A DNA stretch of 53,138 nt from Clostridia bacterium (lineage in GTDB: Bacteria; Bacillota; Clostridia; Christensenellales; UBA1242): positions 1 through 53,138 of the forward strand of contig JAGASX010000010.1 in NCBI GenBank assembly GCA_017621525.1, in the 5' to 3' direction. This document shows positions 16,088-44,418 of this stretch, one piece after another. Positions within the stretch are counted from its first letter, which is position 1; every line of letters begins with the position of its first letter. The translations under genes and the position numbers were made by a program. The notes beneath the pieces were generated by a model. It searched no databases. It was not told where the DNA came from and saw nothing but the letters and a program-made list of their open reading frames with translations.

Positions 16088-19000
16088 TTACGCTTTTGCA
16101 ATTGACGCCTTAAAGCCTTCGCCAGATGTTGCAATTTTAAGCACATAGCTGTTAGGGCAATTTATTGACTGCGCTGAAAGAGCAAGTGTTGTAATCAGCG
16201 AGTGTGTGCCCGATGAGGCTGTTGCATAGTTGCTTCCCAAACTTGTAGGTTTGCTTGTGCAAGATTTTGCAATTGGCTGTCCTGCAACCGTTTCAACAAG
16301 GGTGTTGATTGTGCCACCGCTTATAACATAAGCGATACCACCAAAGTTGAGTGTGCCATAACTTGAAGCGTTTTCAATGGTGCCGTTGTTGTAAAGGTAT
16401 TCAAGCACGCCATTGTTGCTTGCAACAGTTATTCCCGCATAGTAGCCGGTGAATGTTGTAACACCTGCACCGCGAGCATTAAGTTTTAAGTTGCCGTCAT
16501 TGCCCGAAGTTGAAATTTTACCAGCGTTTGAAATGGTTATACCTGCAAGGTAAACAAGGTTGTTGTTTACGCTTACGGTAACTTGTTTTTCACCCTGACA
16601 GAAGCAGTTTGAAATTACGCCATAAGCACTTGTAATGTTGCCGTTGTAAGCACAAATTCCACCGAAACCAAAGTTGAGTGAAAGTTGTTGTGCCATAGAG
16701 TAAGCAAATGTTGCCGAGTTTGTACAGCCTGTTATATTGCCATAGTTTACGCCAACAATTCCGCCCACAAACACGTTGTTTTCACCCTTTCCACCAAGGT
16801 TTTTAACTGTAAACTCTGTTACGTTTACATTTGAAATTTCACCAAAGTTGTACATTGCAATTGGGCTGAACATTATGAATGAGTCAAACATATTGTTATA
16901 AGCAATTGTATAGTCAATATACATATTCTTAATTTCCGCCACCGCTGAAAGTGAATGGAAGATTGAAGAGTATTGGGTGAAATTTAAACTGCTTATGCCA
17001 ACAAGTGCACCCTCAAAAGGTGTATCGAGGTTGGCAACAATTGATGAGGTGATAGTAAGTTTGTATCCACTTCCGTCAAGAGAGCCATAGAACTCTTTGA
17101 TGATTGGTTTAAGCGTGCCGTCAACAGTTGTGTAAAGGTTTGCAAGGTTGATTGTAACATTATCACCAAGTGCGAAATAGAATTTTTTATCTATTGTGTT
17201 GCGTTTTTCAATGTTGATGAAGTCTGTTTCATTTAAGATAAGATATGGGTTTGCCTTTGTTCCATTACCGCCAGAGTAAAGCAGATATGAAATTTCTTCG
17301 CCCTCATAAACCAATCTATCACTGAATGAATACATTTGGTTTGTGCCTTGTGATTTAACCCTTGCACGAATTTCAAAGCCACCGCTTGAAATAAGTCCGC
17401 GATTGTGAGGCATATAGTAGTTTGTTGATACAATTTCTGTTTCTTGTTTGCCAGACACGTAAAGGCTTACGTAGTATTCATATTCCTCTGTGCGTCCGTC
17501 TGCCCAACTCCATTCAAATCGCATTGCTTGTGAGTTCCAACTTACCTGCAAGCCATCTATGCTTGTTTGGTTAAGGGCAAGGATTGTTGTGTCGCTGTAA
17601 AGCAATTTTTTAGGGTTAAGCGTTGTGCCGTCTTGGGCATCTTGCGCCTGAATTGAAAGTATGGTAAGTGTGCTGTAAAGTTCAAAACGCTTGATTGGTG
17701 ATGATGATGTAAGTTCTTCTGTGTAAACTGCATCATCGCCGGCAAGCATATATTGAATGGTTACTTTATAGCAACTGAAATCGTTTGCGATTGAAATTCT
17801 TTCAAAGTATTTTGTGAAGTTAAGGTACGTTCTTTCGCCAACCAATTCAACATCATAATATTCTTCTGTAACTTGTGGCAATTTGTATACATCATTTATC
17901 ACAAGTGGAACAGAAGTTATCTGCGAGCGTCCATAAATTGTGATATAGAATGAAATGGTATCCATTGCCATACTGAACAGGCCCTCGCTTGGTACAACAG
18001 AGCAGTAAACATAATTTTCCTGTCCAAGTTCGGTTGAAGTTGAGAATGTGATTGTACCATACACCTGTTCTGTGATTGTACCGCCACCATAGCCATATTT
18101 TGCAGTAATTGAAATTCTGCTTGCGGTATGCTGTGCAATTTTGTTGCTTTCATCTTCTTCGCCCTCATCACCGCAGATAAGTGGGCCTCTCATTCTTCCG
18201 CCAATGCTATCTTCATAATAGAAAAGTGATTTATCTATTACAAACTGCAATGCGCCATTCATAACGCCGTTGCTTTCGCTTGCAAGGAATGGGGCTTTTG
18301 TTCTTGTCATAATTGGGCTTGTTACGGTAAGGCTTCGTAGAGCGTGCTGTCCGTAATCGGCAGATGGGTACTCGCTGTTTGGCCCAAAGTATACAGAGTC
18401 TGCCAAAAGAAGATATGTGCCTTCAAGTGTTTGAATTGCATTTGCTGTGTCTTTATCGGCACGAAGTGCACCCAAAACTGTTACGCTGATTGTGAAGTAT
18501 TCATAATCGGCAGAGATAAATTGTGAACCTACAATTTGTGCAAAACTTTGAACTTCGCTTGCGTACATTCTTTCGCTGTAAAGAGTTTCTTCATGAAGTT
18601 CCATAAGTGTGTTGCCGTTTTCATCTAAGTTGTCAAATCCGTAATAGCGGACAAGAATTTCATAAACGATATTGCCTGAAAGGTGATTGAAGTCTTTGTC
18701 GGTTACCATATCTATACCCACGCATCTATCGTCAAGGTAGAAGTCGCCACCATACAAGCCGATTGAGTTGATTGATGGAAGCATTTTTGCCTCTATCACC
18801 GATACTGACGAAGAAAGTACTGGGCGAGTTTCGCTGAACACAAGCAAAATGTCGCCTTGGCTTACAGCCTCGTCGCTTACAGTGAATGTTCCGCTGTTTC
18901 CTGAAAGGTATGCATAGAATTCTTCAGCCATAAGTTCTGATGGGTAAATTACCTCATCATATCCGTTTACAGAGCCTACAATATAAGGCACTACGCTGTC

Positions 19001-22000
19001 AACAGAGGTAAGTTCACTTTGATAGTAATATCCGCTGTCGCTTCCTGTATAAACGCCCTTTAAACTTATATCGTTTGCAAGGTTGAATTTAAGGGTGCTC
19101 ATATAGCGTATATCATTTGGATTGTAAGAAATGTTTATTTGGTTGTTTCTTGTTGTAAGGCTTGGCGCGTTTAGTTTATATAAGCCCTTTATAACGTAAG
19201 AATCACTTTCCACATTCATTGTTGAAGGTGAAATAGAGCCGTTAAGTGAAAGAACAATATATTCATAAACTCCGCTTTTATCAAGTTGCAGTTTAACCAT
19301 TCCGTTTTCAAAGTTTTGACGGATTGAAGTTTCTGCCTGTGATGTGATTTTGTATCTTGCCAAAATTTCATAAGTTTGGTCAAGGGTTGCATTGATTGTA
19401 AATTGTCCGTTTACAAATGTTATGCCGTCAGTTTGCAGGTCAAGGTACCTTAAATTAAACTTGGCACTTTTGCCGTTTACAACATATCCGTCATCACATT
19501 GGTATGTGAAAATGTTGGCGGTGATAAGAGTGTTCACCTGTATTTTTTCGCCATAACCAAGCACTTCCAATGCATCTTTAAGTTTATTCATATTCAACTT
19601 AAATGACGGAATAGCAAGGTTTGATGCAACATTTGTAATCACGCCGTCAACCGCGCTGTTTAAATCTTGTCCGCCAATTGAAATATGCCAACTTGTGCCG
19701 TCATAACCAATGATGAAGTTTATGATTTCATCAAGCATATAAAGGCCGTCTTTTGGTGCATAGCGAAGTTGCATTTTGTAAACCTGACCAAGTTGTTTTG
19801 TGTATCCACTGCCTGTATTTACCATATTCATTGTTGGTTTTACAATTGCAGTATAGTATGTTTCACCGTCGCCTTCTTCTGTCTGCAAAGTAAGTTCAGG
19901 CGATGCAGAAATATAAATTTTTACCGCCTGTGAGTAATTTGATTCAATAAAGTTTGATTGCCCTACTTGGCAAATTGAGAACAGGTATTCACCTTCCGGC
20001 AGAATTCTTGCAAAGTCGTCAATTAAAACCACATTATCGCCAATTCCATGGTTGGAACGTGAAATTGATGTGATAAGTGCATCGGTGTTTTGCGCCTCAA
20101 TAGTGTCAAGGTTTTGAAGCATAAGTTGTTGGTAAATGCGAAGAAGTGTGATGTAACTATCTGTCATTGTGTTTTGATTTTCAACCGTCGCATAATCTCT
20201 TGAAGCAAAGGAAATGTCTACATCAGGCATAAGTACAGATGCGTTTATTGTGCCTGTATATGACAAGTTGGTTGCACCGCCACCGCTTACAGAGGTTATT
20301 CTCATTTGAAGCAACGCCTCATCGAATGTTGGAACGGTAAATGCAAATGGCGACTTATAAACTTCAAGACCTATTTGACTATGGAGCGACTGTGCAGGTG
20401 TTGTCTGTCCAAAATATTCGATTATATCTTGCATAAAGTCGCTTGCCAAAAATGCATCATGTTTGTAAACAATTTGTCCGTCAACAACATCAACCGCGAT
20501 AGGTGTTGGGTAAAGCATTGTGTTGGTTTTTTCAGACTCTCTGCTTGCGACCACATTTTTGTTGAAGTTAAGGGCAATGATGCTTACATTGTATGCATTG
20601 TTTTCTTTAAGTCCAACTGTACGCATATCAATGGCATTTGCTGTGGTAAGAATTTTCTTGGAAGTGCCCAAAATCATATTTTCAAGCACAACATAGTATG
20701 AGGTTGGGGTAGGCTCTCCGCCCGCCTTGTTCTCCCATGTCCAACGCAAATAGTTGTTTTCAATGGTAAGAATGTTTGCCTCATCGGCACCGTCGTTTAC
20801 GCAGTTGAGTTTATATAAGTCATACACATTTGTATTGTATTGATAGTAAGTTGTATCAGTTTTGCCCACGCGTGCAATCTTTATTGACACATCGCCATAG
20901 GCAATTGTAGAAAGCAGGTCGCGTATGCTTACCGCATAGCACTTGGTGTAAATAAGGTTTGCCTCTGTGCCCTTTTCTTGGGTGAAATAACCATTTTTAC
21001 CTTCAAGGTCGGTTACCCAATAGCCTAAAACATCGCTTGGGTAGAAGTAGAAATTGCGTGTGTCTTCTGTGTAGTCATAGCGAAGTTCGCTTTCTTCTGG
21101 CGGTGGAGTTTCTTCGCCACCTTCGCCCTCTTCGCCCGTTCCGTCGCCGGTATCTTCGCCGTCGCCGGTGTTTGTATCATCTTCAATAATTTCATCCATA
21201 AACAAGCCGGTAAGGCGAATTGAAAATGCTGTGGTTGAAATGCCTTCATTGTCAGCATCAAAAATTAAATAATCCTTTTCCAAATCTCGTCCACGCACAA
21301 GGCTTGGGTCGTCGCCGGTGCGATAGCCTATTGTAAGTGGCGACCACGCACTGCGGATAAAGCCAAATCGTCTTACAGAAAATTCTATCTCATATTCTGT
21401 ATTTGTAAGTTGAATTTCGCTTGCAAACAGGTCGAATATTTCCGCCATTGTAACAAAGAATTGAGTTTCACTTCCCTCTACCGTTTGGGCAGTGAAGTCC
21501 TTTTCAATATAGGCATCTTCACCTGTTTTCATTCTTGCGGTAAACACAAGGTCATCATAATGATGAAGGACTAATGTGAAGTTAATATTCCCCTTGTCGT
21601 CAACTGAAATATCTTGTAAGTTGTCAATCCTATATCCATAATGGTCTTGATATTGATAACTTGGCAAAATTGCCCCTGTTGCATCAAAGGTTATATAATC
21701 AATGTCATAATATCCACCAAATGGCACAGCACCGAAGAAGTCATCAGCCATAAGGTCAAATTGAGGGTTTTCTTTAATTTCTTCGGGGTGTATAATCTTT
21801 ACAACTTCTTGGTCGCCAAGGCGAAGTCGAAGTGCATATGACGCCCCCTCAACAGGCTCATCAATTGTCATTATGCCATCATTATCAATTAAAACCGCCG
21901 GTTCACTTTCAAAACGAACAACATCAAAAGTTTGAGTTGTAGAGCAAATTGCATCATTGCTGTAAACATTTAAGTTTATTTGGTTTGGCACATTGTTGCC

Positions 22001-25000
22001 TGTGAAGAAAAGTGTACACAGTGAGACATCTCCATGGCTCCATGATGGAACTTGAATATGGAAATATCCGTCAATAAGTTGAATGTTTCCGCTGTTTGCT
22101 CCGTCAATCCTTGAACGCGACCAGCAAGTTGTAATTTCTGATTCGTGGTCTCTCAAACAACCTGCCGTATATGCCTTCCAAGTTAATGCAAAGGTAAGGT
22201 CGCTGTCGGCATGGTTTGTCCAAACGTCTTTTACAATAAATTCAAAACCAGAAAGGCGGATATTTTCAAACTCGCTTTCATATTTATCTGACGGCTTAGC
22301 CCTCATAACAACTTCTGTTGGATTGTCAATTTTTGTTGTTGTAAAAATTTGAGAATCTACGCTTCCAATAAAGCCCTTTGCACCTGCCCCGCGAAGAACA
22401 TAGTCATATTGCATTTGGGCTGTAAGCCAAACTTGCACCTCTCCGGCAAGAAGTGTTGCATTTAAGTAATTTTCTATTTCATCATAGTAAACAAATCTTT
22501 CATTTTCTACAATGTATTGGTATACATTCTCTCCGCTATCTTTTGCGTTGACAACATATACAATAGGTTGTGTTTCTGTGCCGGTAAGTGTTTTTAATTC
22601 ATTTGACCAACGCAAAACACCCTCATTGCAATCTTTAAAAATTTCTTCATATGTAGTGTGTGTTACATCAAATGTTTTGTTTGCAAGGTTTTCAACTGTA
22701 ACTGCGAATGGTTTAGAGTTGAAATAATAGTGGGTTGTATCGCTGTTTTGTGCTTTAAGCATAATTTCAAATTTTGTAGTGTCTGCAAAATCTGCAAAAT
22801 TAAATGTTGCAATGTTTGCTCCAATTGTGTAGTTTACATTTGAAGAAGAGCCGTTTACAAGCACCTGTCCAACATAAGATTGGTCATAAAGAATTGCTAT
22901 TGTGCCAAAATAGCCGTCTGCTGTTTTTGATATTGCAAGTGCGTCGTCAAGTTGCAACTGCTCTATATAAATTGGGTCTGAAAGTTGGCTGTCAAGATAT
23001 GTTTTATTAAATGCTTGCACCTGAATTTTCTTTGCAATTAAAAAGTCATAAGTGCCAAGGTCTGACAGTGTGATTTGTGATGAGGTATAGCCCTCAATCG
23101 CAAGAATTTCATCAACATAAATGTCATAAGTTGAGTTTTCCGCCTCTTCCGTCCAAGAAATTATGCAATTTTCATCATCAAATGAAAGTTGTGGTTTTTT
23201 CAGTGTGTATATATCAAGGTGAGTTTCGCCGGAAGTTGTAACCGCGTTTGGTGATGGCAGGCGGTAAACTTCACCCTGAACGCCGTCGCAGAATGAGTAC
23301 ATTTCAACTTGCAAATACTCTGCCTGTCTGTATGCAGAATTAAGTGTTGGGTCGGTTGATGTCAACAAGTCAACAAGTGATTGCAAGTCATAGGTGCTTT
23401 CAGTGTTTTCAATTTGGAATGAGTGATAATAGTTTGCCGATTTGCTGTTGATAAGCCCTAAAACACCCTCAAATCTTAATACAGGAATGGTGTTAAGGTC
23501 TGTCCATGAAATATATCCGTCATAATATGTGAATGTGCTTGGAGATATTGCACGATTGAATGTTGTTTGGTTTGCAACGCTTGCAACATAGTATTGATTG
23601 CCGTTGTTCTCTGCCGGCAAATATCTTGTTTGTAAGGTGAACGAACTGCCAAATTTTGTATAGTCGAAAAGGTCAAGCGTAAAGCCCTCTTGGCTGATAA
23701 CCTGTCCGTTCATAACAACTTCAACCGCCGTAGCGTTGGAAATTACCACATAATTTTGATATTCATTTGTGCGTTTGCCAAAAATATCTTTTGCATATTC
23801 CATTTCAAAGGTAACCTCGGCAAGTCTTTCAACACCCAAGATTTGTGGATTGCTGTCAAGGTACAAAACAGGGTCATATTTAAGTCCGCTTTTTGCAATT
23901 ATTTGAACATCATAATTTTTTGCATCTGCAAGTGGATTTTGAAGAATGTATGCATATTCTTCCCTTTCTTCACCTACTACAATTGTTCCGTCAAGGTTGC
24001 CGTCAACATAGATGTCATATTGCCCGCCAAATTCAACCGCTGTTATGGTAAGCGTAAGCGCGCCATTATCATCTTCAAATTCAACTTCTGGGGTTTCAAT
24101 TGTGTATGTTGCAATAAAGTTTTGGGTAAAGAATGAATTTTCATCAACAAAATTGCAGTCGAGATTAAAGTTTGTATCTGTTGTTTTTGAATAAATTTTT
24201 ATTGTGTAATAACTGCCAAGTGGAAGAATTGGGTTTGTTGTAAGGTCGGTTGTAGTGCCCGTTAAAACAGGTGTATTATCGGTTACGTTGTACTCTTTAT
24301 CAGTTTTGTAAACTTCATAGTAATATTCAACTTCACCTTCAACGCCATTCCAAGCAAAATAGCCATTGGTTTGGCTGTCCGCCTCGCTTACAACCTCCAA
24401 AATGGAAATCGTCCTTTCTTTTTGCACTTGCAATGCGTGTTCTACGCCGTCTTCAATGGTTGTAGCAACAATTGTGAATGTATAATCTCTGCCGTTTGGT
24501 GAAATCTGGCCAAGGTTTTCAAAAGAAATTTGCACTTTGCCGTTTTCTACCACCCTTTGCACATCTGTCATAAGGTTGCCATTGATGAAAAGCGTATATG
24601 TATTTGCGTTTTCCACTTCATCAAAAGTGATTGTAGAAGTTGTGCCGTTAAGTGCGTGCGTAAAGTCTGCAATTTCTTCAAGAACGAAGAAATTGAAAAT
24701 GTATTCGCTGGAATTTACAACACTTTCGCTTGACGCATCGCCAAAATATTTTTCTTGAGCGCCCGATGATGAAGTTTCATCTGCGTTTGGCAGTGCGGTA
24801 ACCTTTATTGAATGTTGCCCAACAGGAAGAACTGAAAGGTCTATGGTTGCGGTAAGCCCACTTTGAATGTTGTAAGCAATACTTCTTCCGCCAAATGAAA
24901 TTTTATAATTTTTTGAATAGTGATTTTCATTAAAAGTAACTTGGGCAGTTTTGCCTACAAATTCAACAGAAACTTCTGGAACTTCAAGTTTTGCATAAGT

Positions 25001-26131
25001 TTTTACAGTTGAGGTGTTGCTGTTAAGGAAAAATCCGTTTGCAGTGGTTTGTCCCAAAGCCATAATTTGAACATTGTAAAGGCCACCTTCAAATCCGTCA
25101 AGAAATTCCTTTATTTCAGCCCCACTTACAACGCCATGCACTTCGCTGTCGCCGGCAAAATTTGTTGCAGAAAGCAAATAACTGTTTGCGTTTGCCTCGC
25201 CAGCCCATGCAATTGCGCCGTCGGTGCCGTCATAGTTGTAGTTCAGGATTGGGGTTTGAAGTTTTGTAAGTGTAAACTTTGAAGTTGTTGAAAGTTTTGT
25301 GCCTACCATGTCGTTTGCAACAACCAAAAGTTCCAACTCACTTCCGCCCGCATATCTTGTAAAGTCAAATTGGAAAAAGTTTTCGCTTATGCCGGAAGCA
25401 AGTTTAAAGCCTTCCAGCCAAACATCGTAAGTTGCCTCCTCTTTGGCTGTCCAAGAGAATTTTGCAATTTGGTTGCCAATTGTTTGCTCTACCTGCAAGT
25501 TTGCCCCTTCAACCAAACCCATAACACCGTTGTTTATATCTTTTGTTATGGTTTTTGAGTTGTCAATTTCTTCTTCATCGCCCAAAGCGGTGATTGAAAT
25601 GTTGTACGCCCCTTTATTTGGGAATGTGAATGAATTTTCTGTAACAGACAATTCGCTTAATGCACCAAGTGTGCCGGTTGCATCATATTCAGCATATTTA
25701 ATCTTATATTCTTGGGCATAAATTGTTTTACCATTTTTTACAATAAATGATTTATCCCAAATTAAAGTGTAATCGTCGCCAATTTGAAGATTTTTTGGGG
25801 AAGAAAATTTATACTTAACATTCACCTTTGCCTTTGCAATGGTTTTGTTGTCGCTTTTTGCAAATATGTAAGTTTCACCAGAGTTTATCGCCTTGTATTG
25901 CCCTTTTGCCTCTTTCTGCAAAATTCCTTCATTTGAAAGGTCAAAAATAACACCCTCTGCGTCTATGCCTTGTAAGGTGATTTCATCTAAAAAATTGATT
26001 GTTTCTTCCAATGATAAATTATATTCATTTTGTGCAAATTGCCCACTGATATTTGATGGGCTGTTGCAGGCAGTTAAACAGCCACTCACCAAAAAGGCAA
26101 ACATAAAAAGCGTAAAGATTTTTTTCTTCAT
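16088..26131 (-). CDS. Giant (~3347 aa) surface lipoprotein with many beta-sandwich (Fn3/Ig-like) repeats and a C-terminal GLUG-like region
   Basis: Uninterrupted ORF; likely start MKKKIF at 26131 (GAGGT RBS); LTAC lipobox; recurring KL..P...W....A..Y modules; GGNGTKANPYLI and VGGIVGVNYGNITGC near the C-terminus. Confidence 0.8.
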   Translation of the reverse strand: MKKKIFTLFMFAFLVSGCLTACNSPSNISGQFAQNEYNLSLEETINFLDEITLQGIDAEGVIFDLSNEGILQKEAKGQYKAINSGETYIFAKSDNKTIAKAKVNVKYKFSSPKNLQIGDDYTLIWDKSFIVKNGKTIYAQEYKIKYAEYDATGTLGALSELSVTENSFTFPNKGAYNISITALGDEEEIDNSKTITKDINNGVMGLVEGANLQVEQTIGNQIAKFSWTAKEEATYDVWLEGFKLASGISENFFQFDFTRYAGGSELELLVVANDMVGTKLSTTSKFTLTKLQTPILNYNYDGTDGAIAWAGEANANSYLLSATNFAGDSEVHGVVSGAEIKEFLDGFEGGLYNVQIMALGQTTANGFFLNSNTSTVKTYAKLEVPEVSVEFVGKTAQVTFNENHYSKNYKISFGGRSIAYNIQSGLTATIDLSVLPVGQHSIKVTALPNADETSSSGAQEKYFGDASSESVVNSSEYIFNFFVLEEIADFTHALNGTTSTITFDEVENANTYTLFINGNLMTDVQRVVENGKVQISFENLGQISPNGRDYTFTIVATTIEDGVEHALQVQKERTISILEVVSEADSQTNGYFAWNGVEGEVEYYYEVYKTDKEYNVTDNTPVLTGTTTDLTTNPILPLGSYYTIKIYSKTTDTNFNLDCNFVDENSFFTQNFIATYTIETPEVEFEDDNGALTLTITAVEFGGQYDIYVDGNLDGTIVVGEEREEYAYILQNPLADAKNYDVQIIAKSGLKYDPVLYLDSNPQILGVERLAEVTFEMEYAKDIFGKRTNEYQNYVVISNATAVEVVMNGQVISQEGFTLDLFDYTKFGSSFTLQTRYLPAENNGNQYYVASVANQTTFNRAISPSTFTYYDGYISWTDLNTIPVLRFEGVLGLINSKSANYYHSFQIENTESTYDLQSLVDLLTSTDPTLNSAYRQAEYLQVEMYSFCDGVQGEVYRLPSPNAVTTSGETHLDIYTLKKPQLSFDDENCIISWTEEAENSTYDIYVDEILAIEGYTSSQITLSDLGTYDFLIAKKIQVQAFNKTYLDSQLSDPIYIEQLQLDDALAISKTADGYFGTIAILYDQSYVGQVLVNGSSSNVNYTIGANIATFNFADFADTTKFEIMLKAQNSDTTHYYFNSKPFAVTVENLANKTFDVTHTTYEEIFKDCNEGVLRWSNELKTLTGTETQPIVYVVNAKDSGENVYQYIVENERFVYYDEIENYLNATLLAGEVQVWLTAQMQYDYVLRGAGAKGFIGSVDSQIFTTTKIDNPTEVVMRAKPSDKYESEFENIRLSGFEFIVKDVWTNHADSDLTFALTWKAYTAGCLRDHESEITTCWSRSRIDGANSGNIQLIDGYFHIQVPSWSHGDVSLCTLFFTGNNVPNQINLNVYSNDAICSTTQTFDVVRFESEPAVLIDNDGIMTIDEPVEGASYALRLRLGDQEVVKIIHPEEIKENPQFDLMADDFFGAVPFGGYYDIDYITFDATGAILPSYQYQDHYGYRIDNLQDISVDDKGNINFTLVLHHYDDLVFTARMKTGEDAYIEKDFTAQTVEGSETQFFVTMAEIFDLFASEIQLTNTEYEIEFSVRRFGFIRSAWSPLTIGYRTGDDPSLVRGRDLEKDYLIFDADNEGISTTAFSIRLTGLFMDEIIEDDTNTGDGEDTGDGTGEEGEGGEETPPPEESELRYDYTEDTRNFYFYPSDVLGYWVTDLEGKNGYFTQEKGTEANLIYTKCYAVSIRDLLSTIAYGDVSIKIARVGKTDTTYYQYNTNVYDLYKLNCVNDGADEANILTIENNYLRWTWENKAGGEPTPTSYYVVLENMILGTSKKILTTANAIDMRTVGLKENNAYNVSIIALNFNKNVVASRESEKTNTMLYPTPIAVDVVDGQIVYKHDAFLASDFMQDIIEYFGQTTPAQSLHSQIGLEVYKSPFAFTVPTFDEALLQMRITSVSGGGATNLSYTGTINASVLMPDVDISFASRDYATVENQNTMTDSYITLLRIYQQLMLQNLDTIEAQNTDALITSISRSNHGIGDNVVLIDDFARILPEGEYLFSICQVGQSNFIESNYSQAVKIYISASPELTLQTEEGDGETYYTAIVKPTMNMVNTGSGYTKQLGQVYKMQLRYAPKDGLYMLDEIINFIIGYDGTSWHISIGGQDLNSAVDGVITNVASNLAIPSFKLNMNKLKDALEVLGYGEKIQVNTLITANIFTYQCDDGYVVNGKSAKFNLRYLDLQTDGITFVNGQFTINATLDQTYEILARYKITSQAETSIRQNFENGMVKLQLDKSGVYEYIVLSLNGSISPSTMNVESDSYVIKGLYKLNAPSLTTRNNQINISYNPNDIRYMSTLKFNLANDISLKGVYTGSDSGYYYQSELTSVDSVVPYIVGSVNGYDEVIYPSELMAEEFYAYLSGNSGTFTVSDEAVSQGDILLVFSETRPVLSSSVSVIEAKMLPSINSIGLYGGDFYLDDRCVGIDMVTDKDFNHLSGNIVYEILVRYYGFDNLDENGNTLMELHEETLYSERMYASEVQSFAQIVGSQFISADYEYFTISVTVLGALRADKDTANAIQTLEGTYLLLADSVYFGPNSEYPSADYGQHALRSLTVTSPIMTRTKAPFLASESNGVMNGALQFVIDKSLFYYEDSIGGRMRGPLICGDEGEEDESNKIAQHTASRISITAKYGYGGGTITEQVYGTITFSTSTELGQENYVYCSVVPSEGLFSMAMDTISFYITIYGRSQITSVPLVINDVYKLPQVTEEYYDVELVGERTYLNFTKYFERISIANDFSCYKVTIQYMLAGDDAVYTEELTSSSPIKRFELYSTLTILSIQAQDAQDGTTLNPKKLLYSDTTILALNQTSIDGLQVSWNSQAMRFEWSWADGRTEEYEYYVSLYVSGKQETEIVSTNYYMPHNRGLISSGGFEIRARVKSQGTNQMYSFSDRLVYEGEEISYLLYSGGNGTKANPYLILNETDFINIEKRNTIDKKFYFALGDNVTINLANLYTTVDGTLKPIIKEFYGSLDGSGYKLTITSSIVANLDTPFEGALVGISSLNFTQYSSIFHSLSAVAEIKNMYIDYTIAYNNMFDSFIMFSPIAMYNFGEISNVNVTEFTVKNLGGKGENNVFVGGIVGVNYGNITGCTNSATFAYSMAQQLSLNFGFGGICAYNGNITSAYGVISNCFCQGEKQVTVSVNNNLVYLAGITISNAGKISTSGNDGNLKLNARGAGVTTFTGYYAGITVASNNGVLEYLYNNGTIENASSYGTLNFGGIAYVISGGTINTLVETVAGQPIAKSCTSKPTSLGSNYATASSGTHSLITTLALSAQSINCPNSYVLKIATSGEGFKASIAKA

Positions 26132-26388
26132 AGCGACCTCTTCCTTTATTATTTTCATATTAACACTTTTTAAGCCATTTAGGCAAATGTTTTAACAAAT
26201 TTTGCCTAAATAAATATCTAAAAGATATTTTATATTATTAAATAAAAATTTTTTTTAAAAATATTTAAAAATAAAAAATAATGAAAAATATCACAAAAAA
26301 TCATTAAAAATTAAAAAAAATAATAAAAAATAATGAGAAAATTAAAATAAAAATAAAAAATGCCTATAAAAATAGACATTTTTGTTTT

Positions 26389-27870
26389 TTATGAAAGATA
26401 TGTTCCGTCGTCCTCAATTTCTTTATTTTCATAGTTTTGATAAACAGATTCTGCAATTGCAACAAGGTCTTCTTTGTCGCAAACCAAAACTTCTTCAAGG
26501 TCGTCGGCTTTAATATCATACTGTGCCTCTTTAAGTGCAATTGCATCGGCAACGGTAAAATTGCCAGCCCTTCTCATTCTTCTATCCTCGCGTTTAAAAG
26601 CACGCAGTTTTGCCTTGCCTTGGGCGTTAAGGTCATAAAATTTAATTATTCCGTCAATATTTGCAGTATACCAGCCATGGACAAGGGAATTTCTTATTTT
26701 TTCAAGTGTTTCACCCGCGTTTACTCCCACCATTGCGGTAACATTTTCATCATCATCAAAATTTGCGTCTTTATTGTAAAATTGTGATGTAAGAACAAAT
26801 TTTGCATAGCCAATTGCGTCATGGCAAAGCAAAACTTCTGGGCTGTTTGCACATTTCCATGCAAGGTATCCGCTTTCATCACCCATCATAGTTTGCAGGC
26901 GTTCATTTAAAATTTTGTTTACGCCAAAATAATCTTTTGCAGGCTCTTCACACATAATTTCATTAAAAGCAAAATTTAGGTCATTTGCAATTGCGTTTGC
27001 ACTGCGTTTTGGACGATAATATAACGCCATAAAAATTTCATTTTTTCTCTTGAAAAATTTTGCCAAACCTGTTCTGTTTAAATAAACCTTTTTGCCCTCT
27101 GGGTGTTCTTTTAAAAATTGTGCATTTTTAAATTTTAAATAGCCATTGGATATGCTTGCAATTCTTCTTGCGTTATTCTCTTTTATAATCGCGCCGTCAA
27201 CAAAGCGATTTACCTGCCCTAAATACTCTTTCAAAAGCGTTAATGGTGCGTTTACTGCATCATTCTCTCTGCCGTTTAAATAAAGGGATACAACCACTTC
27301 GCCACCTTCGCTTGAAAGGTCATAATTATTATGCGCAATGGTGTTGCGAATTCTTGTGCAAAGCAGGTCCTCTTTCATCTCTAAAAATTGGTCATGCCCT
27401 GCAAAAAGTTGTCTTTTAAGGCGAAGATATGAAATGTTATGCCCTGCACGCTCCCAATCAACGTAACTATAAAAAATCTCTTTAAATTGAATTAAATTGC
27501 CCAAAATGTTAGACACATTTAAGTATGCAATATTGTTTAAATCGTCGCGTGAAATACCATATTTTTCGGCCTCTACAAATATTTTTGCAAGAGGTGCATT
27601 TTCCCCAACCATAATCTCTTTTGTTTTGATAAGTGAAAGCCAAATCCTTCGCATAAATTCAAGCGAATCATTTTGATAATCTCTGTTATATTGCCCCGCT
27701 TTAAAATGCAAAAATTGCATAAGACATGAAGGCTCTTGCTTGTTTTTATCATTCTCTGTCAAGCCATTTACAAACTTAAAATTATTATAGAAAAAAGATA
27801 TTGGCGACCTTACAAGTTCCAACGGACCTCTTCCCTCTTCATTTTTGTAAAAACCTTTATTTTCTTCCAT
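26389..27870 (-). CDS. Hypothetical protein with two HEPN-like RNase motifs (RNTIAH and RNSLVH)
   Basis: Open 493-501 aa frame; motifs at nt 27331-27348 and 26677-26694; probable start MEENKG at 27870, just downstream of a promoter. Confidence 0.7.
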   Translation of the reverse strand: MEENKGFYKNEEGRGPLELVRSPISFFYNNFKFVNGLTENDKNKQEPSCLMQFLHFKAGQYNRDYQNDSLEFMRRIWLSLIKTKEIMVGENAPLAKIFVEAEKYGISRDDLNNIAYLNVSNILGNLIQFKEIFYSYVDWERAGHNISYLRLKRQLFAGHDQFLEMKEDLLCTRIRNTIAHNNYDLSSEGGEVVVSLYLNGRENDAVNAPLTLLKEYLGQVNRFVDGAIIKENNARRIASISNGYLKFKNAQFLKEHPEGKKVYLNRTGLAKFFKRKNEIFMALYYRPKRSANAIANDLNFAFNEIMCEEPAKDYFGVNKILNERLQTMMGDESGYLAWKCANSPEVLLCHDAIGYAKFVLTSQFYNKDANFDDDENVTAMVGVNAGETLEKIRNSLVHGWYTANIDGIIKFYDLNAQGKAKLRAFKREDRRMRRAGNFTVADAIALKEAQYDIKADDLEEVLVCDKEDLVAIAESVYQNYENKEIEDDGTYLS

Positions 27871-27876
27871 ACTTAT

Positions 27877-27904
27877 ATTGTATAACATAATCACATTTTG
27901 TCAA
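27877..27904 (-). promoter_or_regulatory. Sigma-A promoter of the dual-HEPN gene, probably giving a leaderless mRNA
   Basis: TTGACA-16 nt-TACAAT; ATG follows after 6 nt; no SD sequence. Confidence 0.55.
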
Positions 27905-27937
27905 GACCCAAAGTTGATTTTGGGGCGGAAATTTCTT

Positions 27938-28187
27938 TCAATCAAGCCAAACGTACACCCTTGCCTTGTTATCTATAATACCCACCCAAAATGATAATTT
28001 ATTGTATATTTTTTTATAAATATAATTGCCTATATTGTAAAGTTTCTTTATCATTCCTTTCCCATGAGTGTTAGTTAAAAGTTTTGCAATATGGCTCATA
28101 AAATCATCACATAATTTTTCAACATATTTTAAAGATTCTTTGTTACATTTTTTACAATATTTTATGTGTGTATTTTTTCTTTTTCAT
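27938..28187 (-). pseudogene. Frameshifted small ORF (~82 codons) with a CxxC
   Basis: ATG at 28187 (MKKKKY...) stops after 11 codons; the adjacent frame is open 28183-27938 (…IKYCKKCNKESLKYVEKLCDDFMSH…VYVWLD); alternatively a 53-aa ORF from ATG 28099. Confidence 0.4.
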
Positions 28188-28242
28188 AACCCCATTATAT
28201 CATGAAATAACAAATATAATAAAGTTTTAAATAAAAAATATT

Positions 28243-28313
28243 AAAAAATTCAACCCCGCGTGGCGTTACCGCCGATTTCCAATAAACAAAGTATTGGCAT
28301 TGGTTGAATTCAT
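28243..28313 (-). ncRNA. Putative structured small RNA, cassette B
   Basis: TTGACT-17-TATAAT promoter (28346-28318); closing stem AAUUCAACC/GGUUGAAUU plus U-run; internal hairpins CCAAUA/UAUUGG and GGCG-GUAA-CGCC. Confidence 0.65.
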
Positions 28314-28350
28314 GATTATTATACTTCAAAAAAACAGAAAAGTCAACTAC

Positions 28351-28404
28351 AAAAAAAAGATGGGATTATCGATGCCATACCGCTTCGCCTCTATCCCTAT
28401 CTTT
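28351..28404 (-). ncRNA. Putative structured small RNA, cassette A
   Basis: TTGACA-17-TATATT promoter with TG extension (28439-28411); closing stem AAAGAU(A)GGGAU/AUCCCAUCUUU ending in a U8 run. Confidence 0.6.
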
Positions 28405-28430
28405 AATAATAATATATCAAAATATTTACA

Positions 28431-29852
28431 GTGTGTCAATAAAAAATTTTAACATAACTTTCAAACGAGTAGATGGACAACCAGTATGGAACAAAGGTTT
28501 TAGACTTATCTGAAATAACATAACTCTCAAACATGCAAGCGTCGGAGCAACAAAAGACGAAGGTTTTAGACTTATCTGAAATAACATAACTCTCAAACCA
28601 GTTTAAAAGTCTTGAAATGTGGAATAGTGTTTTAGACTTATCTGAAATAACATAACTCTCAAACGATGTTGAAACCTATGGAGATGGTGTTGATGTTTTA
28701 GACTTATCTGAAATAACATAACTCTCAAACTTAAAGAACTCACTCCATTTTTTGTAATCTGTTTTAGACTTATCTGAAATAACATAACTCTCAAACCTCA
28801 TCATTTACTTGCTGAACAAACTCGTTGTTTTAGACTTATCTGAAATAACATAACTCTCAAACGTTGTTATAGTGCTTTTGGGCATATAACCAGTTTTAGA
28901 CTTATCTGAAATAACATAACTCTCAAACACCCAGACGCAACTATTGCGACAAAATTTGGTTTTAGACTTATCTGAAATAACATAACTCTCAAACACTAAA
29001 GCACAAAACAAGTCAATCAAAAATGTTTTAGACTTATCTGAAATAACATAACTCTCAAACATTACCAGTCTTTTTAGCTTTAATAAAAGCGTTTTAGACT
29101 TATCTGAAATAACATAACTCTCAAACTATCTTGAACCATTTGTCTTTCAAGTTTAAGTTTTAGACTTATCTGAAATAACATAACTCTCAAACTTGGCGAA
29201 GTTTCAACGCTTCTTGTCTAAGGTTTTAGACTTATCTGAAATAACATAACTCTCAAACCTTGAGCAACTCGTGAAAGAACGTGGGCTGGTTTTAGACTTA
29301 TCTGAAATAACATAACTCTCAAACGATTCATACATGCTGTAAGCAAAACAATCAGTTTTAGACTTATCTGAAATAACATAACTCTCAAACCAAATATGAC
29401 TGCTGAAACTGATTTTATTAGTTTTAGACTTATCTGAAATAACATAACTCTCAAACACATAAAAGCGTTTGAAATACTATATAATAGTTTTAGACTTATC
29501 TGAAATAACATAACTCTCAAACTTAGACCATGTTTCCCAATGGTCGTTGCGGGTTTTAGACTTATCTGAAATAACATAACTCTCAAACATACTTTGGGCT
29601 TAGAAGATTGTTTTCTCTGTTTTAGACTTATCTGAAATAACATAACTCTCAAACCCCTTGCATTTGTTCTTGTATACTTGCGAGGTTTTAGACTTATCTG
29701 AAATAACATAACTCTCAAACATAGAATTTATGTCCCTGACAACTATATTAGTTTTAGACTTATCTGAAATAACATAACTCTCAAACGCATTAAGTATTAT
29801 AATGTGGATAAACAAAGTTTTAGACTTATCTGAAATAACATAACTCTCAAAC
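28431..29852 (-). CRISPR. Type II-A CRISPR array: 21 identical 36-nt repeats (GTTTGAGAGTTATGTTATTTCAGATAAGTCTAAAAC on the minus strand), one degenerate trailer repeat and 21 spacers of 30 nt
   Basis: Exact 66-nt periodicity from 28497 to 29852; degenerate copy at 28431-28466 keeps aacataactttcaaac; orientation set by leader, tracrRNA complementarity and the degenerate end. Confidence 0.99.
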
Positions 29853-36020: not shown

Positions 36021-36026
36021 AATGGT

Positions 36027-36107
36027 GAATAACATAACGAGTTCAAATACATTTATTCAAAACATATCGCAGAGTGGCGAGCAAGATGAGGGTTTCCCTC
36101 ATTTTTT
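36027..36107 (+). ncRNA. tracrRNA
   Basis: Anti-repeat AATAACATAAC-GAG-TTCAAAT pairs with repeat GTTTGAGA-GTTATGTTATT with the usual bulge; ends in hairpin atgaggg-ttt-ccctcat plus a T-run. Confidence 0.9.
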
Positions 36108-40291: not shown

Positions 40292-40891
40292 ATGTTTAAA
40301 GATGAAAATTTAAAAGAAGACAAGTTGTGTGAAGCGTTAAACCTTTTTAAAAAAGCAAGACTATCGGATAAACAAAAATGTGTGCAAGAAATGATTAAAA
40401 TTATTGATGAAAAGAAAGGCTATACTTTTATTCAGCCTGAAAAGGTTGGAGAATTTATCAAGTTTGGATATTACAAATATAATGAAAAATTATACGACAT
40501 TATGGAGATAATTCAACCTGACTATGAATATCTTAAAAACTTTAAGAAAATTAAAGATAAAGATATTGCATCTCTTACATTAAAAGAACTTGAAACATAC
40601 CTTACAAGAATTTTTAGAGGTGAAAAATTTTCTGACGGCGTCATTGCAAGCTGCATTGATGACGGAACACTTAAAAAACTTTTAGAAAGATTTTTGGAAA
40701 TTTATAGGGAAAATGAATTTGAAGAATTAAAAAAAGAAAGTGCAATTTTAAGAAAAACAATATTAGATAAAAATGGCAATGAGTATGAAATAGAAGAAAA
40801 ACTTGAAAATATAAATTGCCCAGATGACATAAATTCTTTAAAAAATGCTTTAAACAAATCTTGTGATAGCAAAAAAGATAACTTAAAATAG
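40292..40891 (+). CDS. Hypothetical protein, DUF6508-like
   Basis: LTRIFRGEKFSDGVIASCIDDGTLKKLLERF motif; AGGAGG RBS; TGGTATAAT upstream. Confidence 0.65.
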   Translation: MFKDENLKEDKLCEALNLFKKARLSDKQKCVQEMIKIIDEKKGYTFIQPEKVGEFIKFGYYKYNEKLYDIMEIIQPDYEYLKNFKKIKDKDIASLTLKELETYLTRIFRGEKFSDGVIASCIDDGTLKKLLERFLEIYRENEFEELKKESAILRKTILDKNGNEYEIEEKLENINCPDDINSLKNALNKSCDSKKDNLK

Positions 40892-40936
40892 TTATCTTTT
40901 TTCAAGATTTATATTTGTTTGAAAATTTGATATTTA

Positions 40937-41491
40937 TTAAATCATGCTTTTTATTTTTTCAAAAATTGGCAGGTTATCTTTATATCCTTTGGGGTTTAAT
41001 GGGCTTGGGTGATAAATTGGAATGAGTGTATAGTTTTTTCCGCCCAAAGTTATGGCAAATTCTCTGCCCACATAGTCTGCAAACCTTTCAATTTTCTCCC
41101 CCAAAAGTGCCTGCGTTGGGTGCATCCCCATTGTTAATATAATTTCGCATGGCAATAAGTTTAATTGTCGCGTCAAAATTGGCATACAATTTTTAGAACA
41201 TTTTGCAAGGTTTTTCCGCTGTTCAATAATGCATTTGCAACATTCGGTAAAATATATGTCCGCAATGGATAGACCTATGCCATTTAAAAGTTTTTCTAAA
41301 ATTCGCCCACTTCCCTGCAATTTGCCAGCCGTGTTGTAAAACGCCCTTCCGCTTTCAATCCAGCCGTCTTTTGCCGGGCTTTCACCAATTACGATAAATT
41401 TAGTTTTCCCAACCTGTACCGAGTTGTCAATAAGTTTGGGCAACTGCCCGCACAATTTGCAACCTGCAATTTCATCTTGAATATTTTGCAT
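40937..41491 (-). CDS. Uracil-DNA glycosylase superfamily protein (family 4/5-like, Cys-containing)
   Basis: CKLC, IVIGESP, YFTECCKC, PIYHPSP motifs. Confidence 0.85.
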   Translation of the reverse strand: MQNIQDEIAGCKLCGQLPKLIDNSVQVGKTKFIVIGESPAKDGWIESGRAFYNTAGKLQGSGRILEKLLNGIGLSIADIYFTECCKCIIEQRKNLAKCSKNCMPILTRQLNLLPCEIILTMGMHPTQALLGEKIERFADYVGREFAITLGGKNYTLIPIYHPSPLNPKGYKDNLPIFEKIKSMI

Positions 41492-41557
41492 ATCTTTCCT
41501 TTTTTTGTAACTTCATAAATATTATTTAACTTGCATTTTTTATAATCAATGTTTTTC

Positions 41558-41689
41558 TTATAAACAATCGGAAATAATTTTCAAAACAATTTCTTCTAAA
41601 TTATTTTGGTAAGTTATACCAAGTTTATTTGCCAAAAACAAACTTTTTCTTTTTATATTTCCATAATTAAAAATTGAACTTGCTATCAT
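41558..41689 (-). pseudogene. Short frameshifted ORF remnant
   Basis: AGGAG RBS + ATG at 41689 (MIASSIFNYGNIKEK) stops early; a second frame continues (KLFLANKLGITYQNNLEEIVLKIISDCL). Confidence 0.3.
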
Positions 41690-41786
41690 ATCGTTCTCCT
41701 TAACTTTTCAAAAATCCAAACAAAAAATTTTGAATTAAATATGTATTTAATGTACTCTGTACTATTTTAGCACAAGGTTTTTCAAT

Positions 41787-42341
41787 TTACAACTCGATGT
41801 TATATTCTTTTGCGAGTTGTTTCACCATCATTCGATACAGCCCTGCAAGTGTTGCGGTGTTTAAATAAGACTGACCAAAATGCACGCTGGCTTGTTGAAA
41901 CAAACTTTTTAAAGAATTTTCAATTTTATTTGCAATTTCATCTTTATGTTTAATGGAAGCCAAATCTGAAATTCGATTTAAATCTGAAGACAAACTGGTT
42001 TTATAAATTCTTTTATATTCTTCTTGGGCCTGAATAGACCAAAAAGTACCATAAAATGGTACTTTATACGCTTTAATCCAATCCCACATTATGTCTGGGT
42101 CTGCAACATTTGGCCCATCTGCATGACATCGACTGCAAAGTAAAACAATATTGGATGGCTTATCTTCGCCTCCCAAAGAATGAGGAACTATATGGCACCT
42201 TTGCAAGTTTCTTTCACATCCACATCGCCAACAATGAGAATGGGTTTCGCTCCAATCTACGCTTAAAAAACATTCATCTACACGTTCCGACCAAAACTCA
42301 ATGGCTTGCATAATTGTTGTCTTAATTGCACTTCTTTTCAT
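41787..42341 (-). CDS. HNH endonuclease
   Basis: CWRCG...RCHIVPHSLGGEDKPSNIVLLCSRCH. Confidence 0.85.
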   Translation of the reverse strand: MKRSAIKTTIMQAIEFWSERVDECFLSVDWSETHSHCWRCGCERNLQRCHIVPHSLGGEDKPSNIVLLCSRCHADGPNVADPDIMWDWIKAYKVPFYGTFWSIQAQEEYKRIYKTSLSSDLNRISDLASIKHKDEIANKIENSLKSLFQQASVHFGQSYLNTATLAGLYRMMVKQLAKEYNIEL

Positions 42342-42433
42342 AAATATTTCCTCTTATGCCTGTACTTTATCTTTGCATTTAACCAACATAAGAATAAAAT
42401 AATATAGTTGTGGCTAAGCAAATGTTAATTTCT

Positions 42434-42700
42434 TTATTTCAATCTCCACTTTTTGGTAATATTATCTCTTTCAATTTTATCTTCTTCTTCCAATTCCCTT
42501 AAAATAGCAACAACCCAATATTGTTGATTTGAAGAAGTGCAATTGGTTTTTTCACCCCAATCCATACCACAATCACGAAAAATATCGGCTTGTCGCATTC
42601 CTGAGCTATATCTTGAACAATCTTCTTTATTAGACATATATTCTAATACTAAATTTTTAAATTCCATTCTTAAATTTTCGCCTCTACTTTTAAAATTCAT
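42434..42700 (-). CDS. Small hypothetical protein, possible winged-helix DNA-binding protein
   Basis: 88 aa; AGGAGG RBS; GMRQADIFRDCG...ILRELEEEDKIERD...WRL pattern. Confidence 0.6.
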   Translation of the reverse strand: MNFKSRGENLRMEFKNLVLEYMSNKEDCSRYSSGMRQADIFRDCGMDWGEKTNCTSSNQQYWVVAILRELEEEDKIERDNITKKWRLK

Positions 42701-42783
42701 AAAACCTCCTTAATTTTACTTTATTATATCACAATTGTTATAAAAAACAAACCCAAACCGAGATTATCGATTTAGGTTTTTAC

Positions 42784-42802
42784 TGGCGGAAAGGTGGTGA
42801 TT
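42784..42802 (-). repeat. Degenerate tRNA-Ser 3'-end remnant (att-like)
   Basis: tggcggaaaggtggtgatt matches the tRNA end tggcggagagatagggatt at 15/19; hairpin lies just downstream. Confidence 0.55.
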
Positions 42803-42899
42803 ACATTCTAATAAATTTTACAATTTTGTTTATTTAATACCTTATTTAAAAACTATGTGCTATAATTAAAATGAAAATTTATGTAAGGAGGATTTTGAT

Positions 42900-43535
42900 A
42901 TGATAACAAAAGAACAAGTATGGAAGGGGTTAAAGTTAGAACTGCCAGATGATGAATTATGCAAAATATTCCAAGATGATGAATACGAAAAAGATGATTA
43001 CTATGATTATGATTTACTTATGGGAACTTTATATAAGGCAATCAATAAAGAGATTGATTTTGAATATTTTATTGATTGGTGCATTTTAGTTGCTAATTGC
43101 TATAATTATACAAAGGAGGGATATAAAACTAAATTAGGTAAATTATACCATGATGTAGGATATTTTTTTGATGGAATATCTTTCATGGACGGATACGACA
43201 AAAAAGATTTTATGGAATCTGTTGCAATGTTAAAACATTATGATTATTTAATTAAAAAAGCAAAGAAAGAAATAAGTGGACCTTTTGAAACAAACGGAGT
43301 AGAAAGAATTCTTATTTTTGACCATTGTAATCGAACTAACAACTCAAGTGTTTATAGGGTTTTTATTAGGGACTACAACAAAAAAGAGTGGGAACTAACA
43401 TACATTGATGATAATGATTTTGAATATGATGAAAACATCAATTATTCATTTGAAGATGAAAAGCATTTTTATAAATATTTTTATGAATTTTATGATAATG
43501 AAGAATGGAAAGAAGTTCACAATATGAAGTTCTAA
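42900..43535 (+). CDS. Acidic hypothetical protein
   Basis: 211 aa; AGGAGG RBS; TGCTATAAT upstream; very AT-rich coding sequence. Confidence 0.75.
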   Translation: MITKEQVWKGLKLELPDDELCKIFQDDEYEKDDYYDYDLLMGTLYKAINKEIDFEYFIDWCILVANCYNYTKEGYKTKLGKLYHDVGYFFDGISFMDGYDKKDFMESVAMLKHYDYLIKKAKKEISGPFETNGVERILIFDHCNRTNNSSVYRVFIRDYNKKEWELTYIDDNDFEYDENINYSFEDEKHFYKYFYEFYDNEEWKEVHNMKF

Positions 43536-43744
43536 ATAATTAAATATAAAAAGTTGGGATAATTATTCTCGGCTTTTTTTATACACTAATTAAATAATTA
43601 AGTTCTTGGCTTTATCCCTCTTTAGGTTTAAGTAATAAGTTTAAGTATATTAAAATTTTTGAGTGTAAACAATAAATCTTTGAACTCCTTAAATTTAGAA
43701 ATAAAAAAATCGCGCTCCAACAATACTGTTAGAACGCGATTATA

Positions 43745-43756
43745 ATTGGCGGAGAG
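43745..43756 (-). repeat. tRNA-Ser 3'-end direct repeat (att-like)
   Basis: attggcggagag is identical to 44329-44340; terminator-like hairpin aatcgcg...cgcgatt adjacent. Confidence 0.65.
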
Positions 43757-43761
43757 TGAGC

Positions 43762-44193
43762 CTATTTATTTGAAACATTATATCTTTCCCAGCCCCACCA
43801 ATCTGGTATCATATCAACTAATTTAATTGTTTTTCTTTTATTATAGTCAAGTAAAATTTCCATATCTTTATTTTTGTCAGAAAGCTGTAAAAAGAATTCT
43901 CTGCATGCACCACATGGTGTCCAACCACCAGTCCCATCAGGAACTCCATCTATATAACAAGTTAAACGTTTAACAACCTTTTGTCCAGACTGAATATACA
44001 TATTAAGAGCAGCTACTCTTTCTGCACAAAGAGCTATAACCCCACTTGCTCCTTCTATGCAAAAACCTCCATAAATTGTTCCATCTTCAGCTTCCAATGC
44101 ACATGCTACATGATGTGCTGTAATAAATGGAGATATCTCCTCTGGACAATATTGTCTTTTGGCTTCTTCAATAAGTTTTTCCCAAATATCCAT
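43762..44193 (-). CDS. Cytidine deaminase family protein
   Basis: Zinc motifs LCAERVA and TPCGACRE. Confidence 0.85.
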   Translation of the reverse strand: MDIWEKLIEEAKRQYCPEEISPFITAHHVACALEAEDGTIYGGFCIEGASGVIALCAERVAALNMYIQSGQKVVKRLTCYIDGVPDGTGGWTPCGACREFFLQLSDKNKDMEILLDYNKRKTIKLVDMIPDWWGWERYNVSNK

Positions 44194-44330: not shown

Positions 44331-44418
44331 TGGCGGAGAGATAGGGATTCGAACCCCAGGACCCTTTCAGGTCAACGGTTTTCAAGACCGCCGCTTTCGA
44401 CCGCTCAGCCATCTCTCC
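44331..44418 (-). tRNA. tRNA-Ser (anticodon TGA)
   Basis: GGAGAGA/TCTCTCC acceptor stem + GCCA; anticodon loop CTTGAAA; long variable arm; GGTTCGAATCC T-arm. Confidence 0.97.

Follow-up and report, generated by a model that had tools for sequence, protein, structure and literature searches.

Ribonucleases (RNases) built on HEPN domains normally need two chains, and Cas13 arose by fusing two. Here we describe a solitary gene, the tandem-HEPN gene, in a 53,138-nucleotide (nt) contig of a Clostridia bacterium of the UBA1242 lineage (JAGASX010000010.1, the whole of which is called the window below), whose protein very likely carries two HEPN domains in a single chain, each with its own conserved RNase-type motif. 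The closest described systems are the following. The pEK499_p136 HEPN family is listed in PMC3710099, where it is linked to restriction-modification (R-M) and Pgl operons. Among CRISPR-guided effectors, Cas13an proteins (429–577 amino acids, aa) lie beside arrays with no other cas genes and their HEPNs group with AbiD/F (PMC12165695), and Cas13e is captured by the model NF049956 and reviewed in PMC12737573. In addition, Yoon et al. (PMC12165695) report ten non-CRISPR clusters, and their Table S2 holds non-CRISPR intramolecular HEPN dimers such as Bacillus mobilis A0A1Y6ANL6 (509 aa), Clostridium sp. DL-VIII G7MBT4 (467 aa) and DUF4209 proteins; HEPN pairs in one chain that use no guide thus form a class that is already known, if uncharacterized. 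Single-gene defence is exemplified by DARNA/PD-T7-3, a HEPN effector of ~460 aa with no antitoxin (10.64898/2026.02.22.705581), and a two-gene archaeal HEPN system is described in the ParA preprint. No description of a tandem pEK499_p136 family was found in the literature searched, which took in few subscription papers.

Two conserved motifs in one chain

The gene lies on the minus strand, where the reading frame is open from either GTG 27894 or ATG 27870 to a stop at 26389. Its features are given below, with residue numbers that here and throughout follow the 501-aa (GTG 27894) numbering unless stated (the 40-row alignment used below was originally numbered from the ATG).

26389..27870 (-): tandem-HEPN gene, 493 aa from ATG 27870 or 501 aa from the upstream GTG 27894
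27877..27904 (-): sigma-70-type promoter, TTGACA-16-TACAAT, a consensus match only, 7 nt before ATG 27870
27193..27714 (-): putative HEPN1, residues 61–234, with helices, motif helix, beta-hairpin, third strand and closing helix
27331..27348 (-): motif 1, RNTIAH, R183–H188, with the His invariant and the Arg replaced by Cys in 7/41 members
27010..27192 (-): variable linker, residues 235–295, of low model confidence (235–282)
26410..27009 (-): putative HEPN2, residues 296–495, with the same element order after the motif
26677..26694 (-): motif 2, RNSLVH, R401–H406, with Arg and His invariant in 41/41 members
26515..26625 (-): basic helical hairpin, residues 424–458, between the second and third strands of HEPN2, subfamily-specific

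Since the promoter match ends 7 nt before ATG 27870, a leaderless start at that codon is favoured, and the 493-aa product of a leaderless mRNA is, judging from the DNA, likelier than the 501-aa form. As the initial annotation had described, both motifs stand in parallel contexts (TRIRNTIAHNNYDL followed by VVVSLY, and EKIRNSLVHGWYTA followed by IIKFYD) and the basic patch KAKLRAFKREDRRMRR is present after motif 2; RNTIAH and RNSLVH are separated by 218 residues in the window protein. Among the 186 open reading frames (ORFs) of 340–600 aa in its own genome (925 kb, 99% complete), eight contain one relaxed motif and the tandem-HEPN gene is the only one with two, so the pair exceeds what would be expected by chance.

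To follow the motifs across the family, 43 homolog loci were fetched, in which a profile matched 44 ORFs, 41 of them full length with both motifs. The three ORFs left out were L105, which is cut by a contig end and has no motif by the pattern used, and the short, motif-less L114 and L120; after removal of a near-duplicate (L089, of L088) and addition of the window protein, 41 sequences were analysed. Profile searches favour motif-bearing matches, but the presence of the second motif in nearly all of them is not forced thereby. In an alignment with 12 relatives the invariant positions were R183, N184, H188, P318, R401, H406 and the start Met, and with 40 relatives (10–75% identity) the invariant columns were reduced to H188, R401 and H406 alone, while the spacing from motif to motif ranged from 146 to 361 residues. 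The conservation in homologs on which the initial annotation had staked its interpretation is complete in three of the four motif Arg/His. One clade of seven members (L087, L092, L094, L095, L096, L099 and L107) has CNxxxH at motif 1 with motif 2 intact, and four of these genes are flanked by yebC on one side and a SpoU methylase gene on the other.

The ratio of nonsynonymous to synonymous substitution rates (dN/dS) was 0.15 against the closest homolog (~75% identical; dS 1.16, near saturation) and 0.15–0.34 across five homolog pairs, and by this measure the gene is under purifying selection. In three further DNA runs from ruminant gut, the gene is present on strain contigs at ~97% identity, and no insertion or deletion within it is listed; part of the gene is also spanned by contigs from a single RNA run, a weak hint of transcription only.

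Domain type and kinship of the halves

The tandem-HEPN protein itself had zero matches in Pfam (PF18736 included), PADLOC and NCBIfam. Across the 41 sequences, PF18736 (pEK499_p136) was the most frequent Pfam match of both halves, found in 16/41 N-halves and 5/41 C-halves (expect value, E, <=1), with best values of 8.8e-5 for an N-half and 7.1e-5 (23 bits) for a C-half; its gathering cut-off of 26.6 bits was reached by no tandem member. Further matches, likewise below cut-off, were to MAE_28990 (5/41) and RiboL-PSP (4/41) for the N-halves and to RiboL-PSP (4/41) and LA2681 (2/41) for the C-halves. Every Pfam family matched by more than one member (E up to 1) is a HEPN family. By profile search, Csm6 (5yjc) was also matched, at E 0.13. 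When the family profiles were used to retrieve single-domain relatives from outside the bacterial family, three of five scored above the pEK499_p136 cut-off, those passing it being 166–193 aa long. In the Atlas, the nearest named clusters to the whole protein and to the C-half, by features and by structure, are linked to pEK499_p136, at values below the Atlas confidence bars, and the top three Atlas structure rows for HEPN2 are likewise pEK499_p136-linked (template modelling, TM, scores of 0.40–0.44 by query). The likeness to pEK499_p136-type HEPNs suggested from the sequence is accordingly supported, both by PF18736 being the commonest match of either half and by the true pEK499_p136 single-domain kin.

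In a profile-profile comparison the alignment of the two halves began with the motif helix and ran through the closing helix, 56 columns in all (probability 96%, E 2.4e-9), and when the motifs were masked the register was kept (E 0.007; score 17.7 vs <=8.3 in 30 column shuffles). The masked comparison gave no signal in compact members only (probability 0.2), and BLASTP of half against half returned nothing. Because masking the motifs leaves the halves in register, both belong, on profile grounds, to the same HEPN subtype. The internal duplication that had been put forward is plausible, though it would be ancient, and a fusion of two related genes would fit the alignments equally well.

AlphaFold modelled the full-length protein (from 19 sequences) with a predicted local distance difference test score (pLDDT) of 77.8 and a predicted TM-score (pTM) of 0.78, both halves lying mostly at 80–97, and HEPN1 folded alone reached a pLDDT of 90. 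In the model, the motif helices span residues 175–187 and 393–406 with each motif at the helix end, and in both halves the order of elements after it is hairpin, third strand, closing helix. Two features that mark HEPN membership are present, namely a conserved Rx4-6H motif and a domain composed chiefly of helices, one of which ends in the motif. The structural comparison suggested by the initial annotation gave a divided result: both halves were modelled with high confidence, but fold searches of the PDB with the full model and with HEPN1 had no solved HEPN among their top 50 rows; viral structure models gave no match either. From the pTM of 0.78 we infer a fixed relative position of the halves, which, on this ground and from HEPN biology, are predicted to pack together as a pair. 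The basic patch differs between members, with 7–9 Lys/Arg per 23 residues in the close subfamily and only 2–5 in most of the distant members, which are devoid of the insert; judging from these counts, it is confined to one subfamily and not family-wide, and the RNA binding that the initial annotation had considered for it would not extend to the whole family.

Distribution and genomic surroundings

Direct searches returned close homologs at about 74–75% and 40% identity, plus five more distant or partial ones. Successive profile searches of related genomes gave matches in 8/101 and then 11/154 genomes, and the family was found in 21/154 genomes of the genus and 22/301 genomes of the bacterial family, to which the tandem form is restricted among the genomes searched. 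It was not found in a phylum sample (1/300 genomes matched) or in an order sample outside the bacterial family (4/287), where the matches were single-motif frames of 105–230 aa only, a result that does not amount to absence. Word-based protein searches returned only three proteins and no shorter close form, and scans of metagenome contigs and viral contigs found no relative. Several genomes hold paralogs, the insertion sites are varied, and the branches on the tree, which was built with a quick method only, are very long. Separately, genome G000 has a 243-aa ORF (C9:55881-56612, +) that may be another HEPN, LRNAIVH being its single motif.

The gene lies ~600 bp from the array of a type II-A CRISPR locus, with cas9, cas1, cas2 and csn2 upstream and a tracrRNA-like anti-repeat at 36025-36105, before cas9.

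28450..29852 (-): array belonging to the type II-A CRISPR locus cas9-cas1-cas2-csn2, with 21 exact 36-nt repeats, 30-nt spacers and one degenerate terminal repeat

No array was found in the 43 homolog loci under a strict and a relaxed test, although several of them stop at the edge of a contig and arrays often fail to assemble. Immediately upstream of the ~75% identical homolog are housekeeping genes, and on its downstream side the contig ends. From 137 listed neighbours, 67 were scanned, and they encode ribosomal proteins, YebC, UvrC, SecA, MscL and similar, with no cas gene and no nucleotidyltransferase or other antitoxin gene among them. In the window, too, there is no adjacent nucleotidyltransferase antitoxin gene of the kind that defines HEPN-MNT pairs. 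A 3356-aa predicted lipoprotein is encoded at 16088-26158 (-), with no Pfam match. In G435 a homolog stands before the same giant lipoprotein gene (32% identity over 500 aa), and in G025 two paralogs do so (N-terminus alike by eye); neither genome has a CRISPR locus within the fetched stretch, and these homologs are not the nearest kin of the window protein on the quick tree. Because the lipoprotein neighbourhood recurs there without a CRISPR locus, the Cas9 locus is most likely a variable neighbour of the tandem-HEPN gene, and we judge the array to be a neighbour outside the tandem-HEPN system. Control of the gene by spacers found no backing, the longest exact run between the 21 spacers and 26100-28460 being 10 nt. 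The spacer at 29523-29552 matches its own genome at C7:16656-16681 (25/26 nt), possibly an integrated element.

Two promoter-hairpin-U-tract units, both on the minus strand, separate the array from the gene. The one at 28241-28346 consists of a promoter (11/12 consensus) and an RNA of ~70 nt that is closed by a stem, has two hairpins inside and carries a U-tract; it had no match in Rfam, where an adjacent RNA of the AbiF type was looked for. Copies at ~70% identity, promoter included, occur in G473, G437, G456 and G404 (L124, L125, L128 and L133), none of them beside arrays in the fetched flanks, and the RNA is a candidate for an unnamed small-RNA family of the genus. The second unit, of ~55 nt at 28351-28439, directly follows the degenerate last CRISPR repeat. 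BLAST found neither unit in the 43 homolog loci, no de novo covariance search having been made, and most DNA matches in the search with the hairpin-unit DNA were AT-rich noise.

Elsewhere in the window and its strains, 683 extra bases lie between the array and the HEPN gene, at 28133-28158, in strains from runs X6 and X8. Low-GC small accessory genes (DUF6508, UDG-family, HNH, deaminase) fill 40292-44193, followed by a tRNA at 44334-44418, and these genes, together with a VirD4-like coupling protein at 49036-51072, likely mark a variable or mobile region.

Proposed function and comparison with known systems

What was observed is a conserved motif pair, a repeated order of elements, purifying selection, a promoter-like site, and a gene that stands alone between housekeeping genes. 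Patchy presence, paralogs within genomes and varied insertion sites form the pattern of conflict genes, and we therefore favour, by a modest degree over doubt, a role in defence, in which the protein is a stand-alone single-chain HEPN pair that acts as an unguided abortive-infection RNase. Two pEK499_p136-like HEPN units in one chain would create one composite RNase site with no need of a partner subunit or guide RNA, and the two Arg-x4-His motifs would cleave RNA metal-independently across the domain interface, as HEPN biology suggests. By analogy with DARNA and Cas13, tRNA would be the likeliest substrate. The fused pair may be kept off by its variable linker or by the basic hairpin until a phage product switches the enzyme on during infection, with the fast-changing parts of the protein presumably serving as the sensor.

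The same HEPN pair might instead be a cellular RNase for RNA processing, turnover or stress-induced dormancy, which we regard as rather unlikely. It is surrounded by housekeeping genes, frequently ones that serve translation (rpsF, rplS, SpoU methylase, HisRS), its position is kept in some clades, and the partial coverage by RNA-run contigs speaks weakly for expression; however, it was not found in 133/154 genomes of the genus and it shows very long branches and paralogs, whereas an RNase with a housekeeping role is usually conserved and present throughout its lineage. It is more doubtful again that the HEPN units pair between chains, each with the matching unit of a second chain, so that the oligomers would have active sites of two kinds. 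This would suit the long, variable linker of low confidence (spacing 146–361 aa) and the typical dimerization of HEPN domains between subunits (10.64898/2026.02.22.705581), but the single-chain pTM implies that the halves pack in a defined way, 41/41 full-length members retain both motifs, and no shorter close form was found.

Regulation or guidance by RNA, whether in an effector of the Cas13an/Cas13e kind that draws on the adjacent array or in a toxin of the AbiF kind that a small RNA keeps in check, seems very unlikely to us. A length of 493 aa and the two-motif layout fit Cas13an (429–577 aa; PMC12165695), the array is 600 bp away with the adjacency kept in one strain contig, the two hairpin units stand between array and gene, 5/40 members touch the Cas13e hidden Markov model (NF049956), and the hairpin is basic. 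The family, however, has an array in 0/43 homolog loci, several of which stop at contig edges, and its ~75% identical homolog has housekeeping genes directly upstream; the window array is served by its own Cas9, adaptation genes and anti-repeat; the Cas13e scores are 13–19 bits (maximum 18.7, and none for the window protein) against a cut-off of 175 bits, in one motif region only; the search of the homolog loci did not turn up the hairpin RNAs; and no spacer matches the gene region over more than 10 nt. A reading as a CRISPR effector was rejected on the first of these grounds and on the array having its own Cas9 and anti-repeat, and on present evidence the tandem-HEPN protein is neither Cas13an nor Cas13e. 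Marginally less credible still is that the motifs are structural or ligand-binding relics in a protein that is not a nuclease: no solved HEPN fold was matched and one clade has Cys for Arg, but Arg and His are conserved while the rest has diverged, as for catalytic residues. We place at a similarly low level a bolder scenario of a second independent Cas13-like origin, in which a pEK499-derived gene doubled and radiated in one small-genome gut Bacillota family, with asymmetric active sites (Cys for Arg in HEPN1) and a subfamily-specific basic hairpin that binds small RNA (the adjacent hairpin RNAs or CRISPR RNAs of the Cas9 array) to control cutting.

If the favoured reading of an unguided abortive-infection RNase is true, a large, fast-diverging, guide-less fused family of another HEPN subtype would show that the fusion step happened more than once. 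Uncultured gut bacteria with small genomes would also gain a candidate family for single-gene defence, missed by current libraries, and the family poses the question of how a pre-assembled RNase stays off with neither antitoxin nor guide.

Compared with known systems, the window family shares with pEK499_p136 the hRNxhxH motif with a hairpin, a strand and a helix after it, and departs from it in having two copies per chain, scores below cut-off and solitary genes, as opposed to R-M/Pgl operons; Atlas clusters of 477 aa and 435 aa, partly labelled PF18736, may be other tandem forms. With Cas13an and Cas13e it has in common a compact single chain, two HEPN motifs and a similar length (493 aa within ~430–580), but it has no array of its own in 43 loci, the array in the window belongs to Cas9, and its HEPNs are pEK499-like, in contrast to the AbiD/F-grouped HEPNs of Cas13an. 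The dimers of Yoon et al. are likewise single chains with two HEPNs and no guide, comparable in size and in part from Bacillota, yet, to judge by their labels, 0/12 are pEK499_p136 proteins or come from the window lineage. DARNA/PD-T7-3, the model for the mechanism proposed here, resembles the tandem-HEPN gene as a single-gene HEPN system with no antitoxin, whereas DARNA combines one HEPN with a sensor domain and dimerizes between chains.
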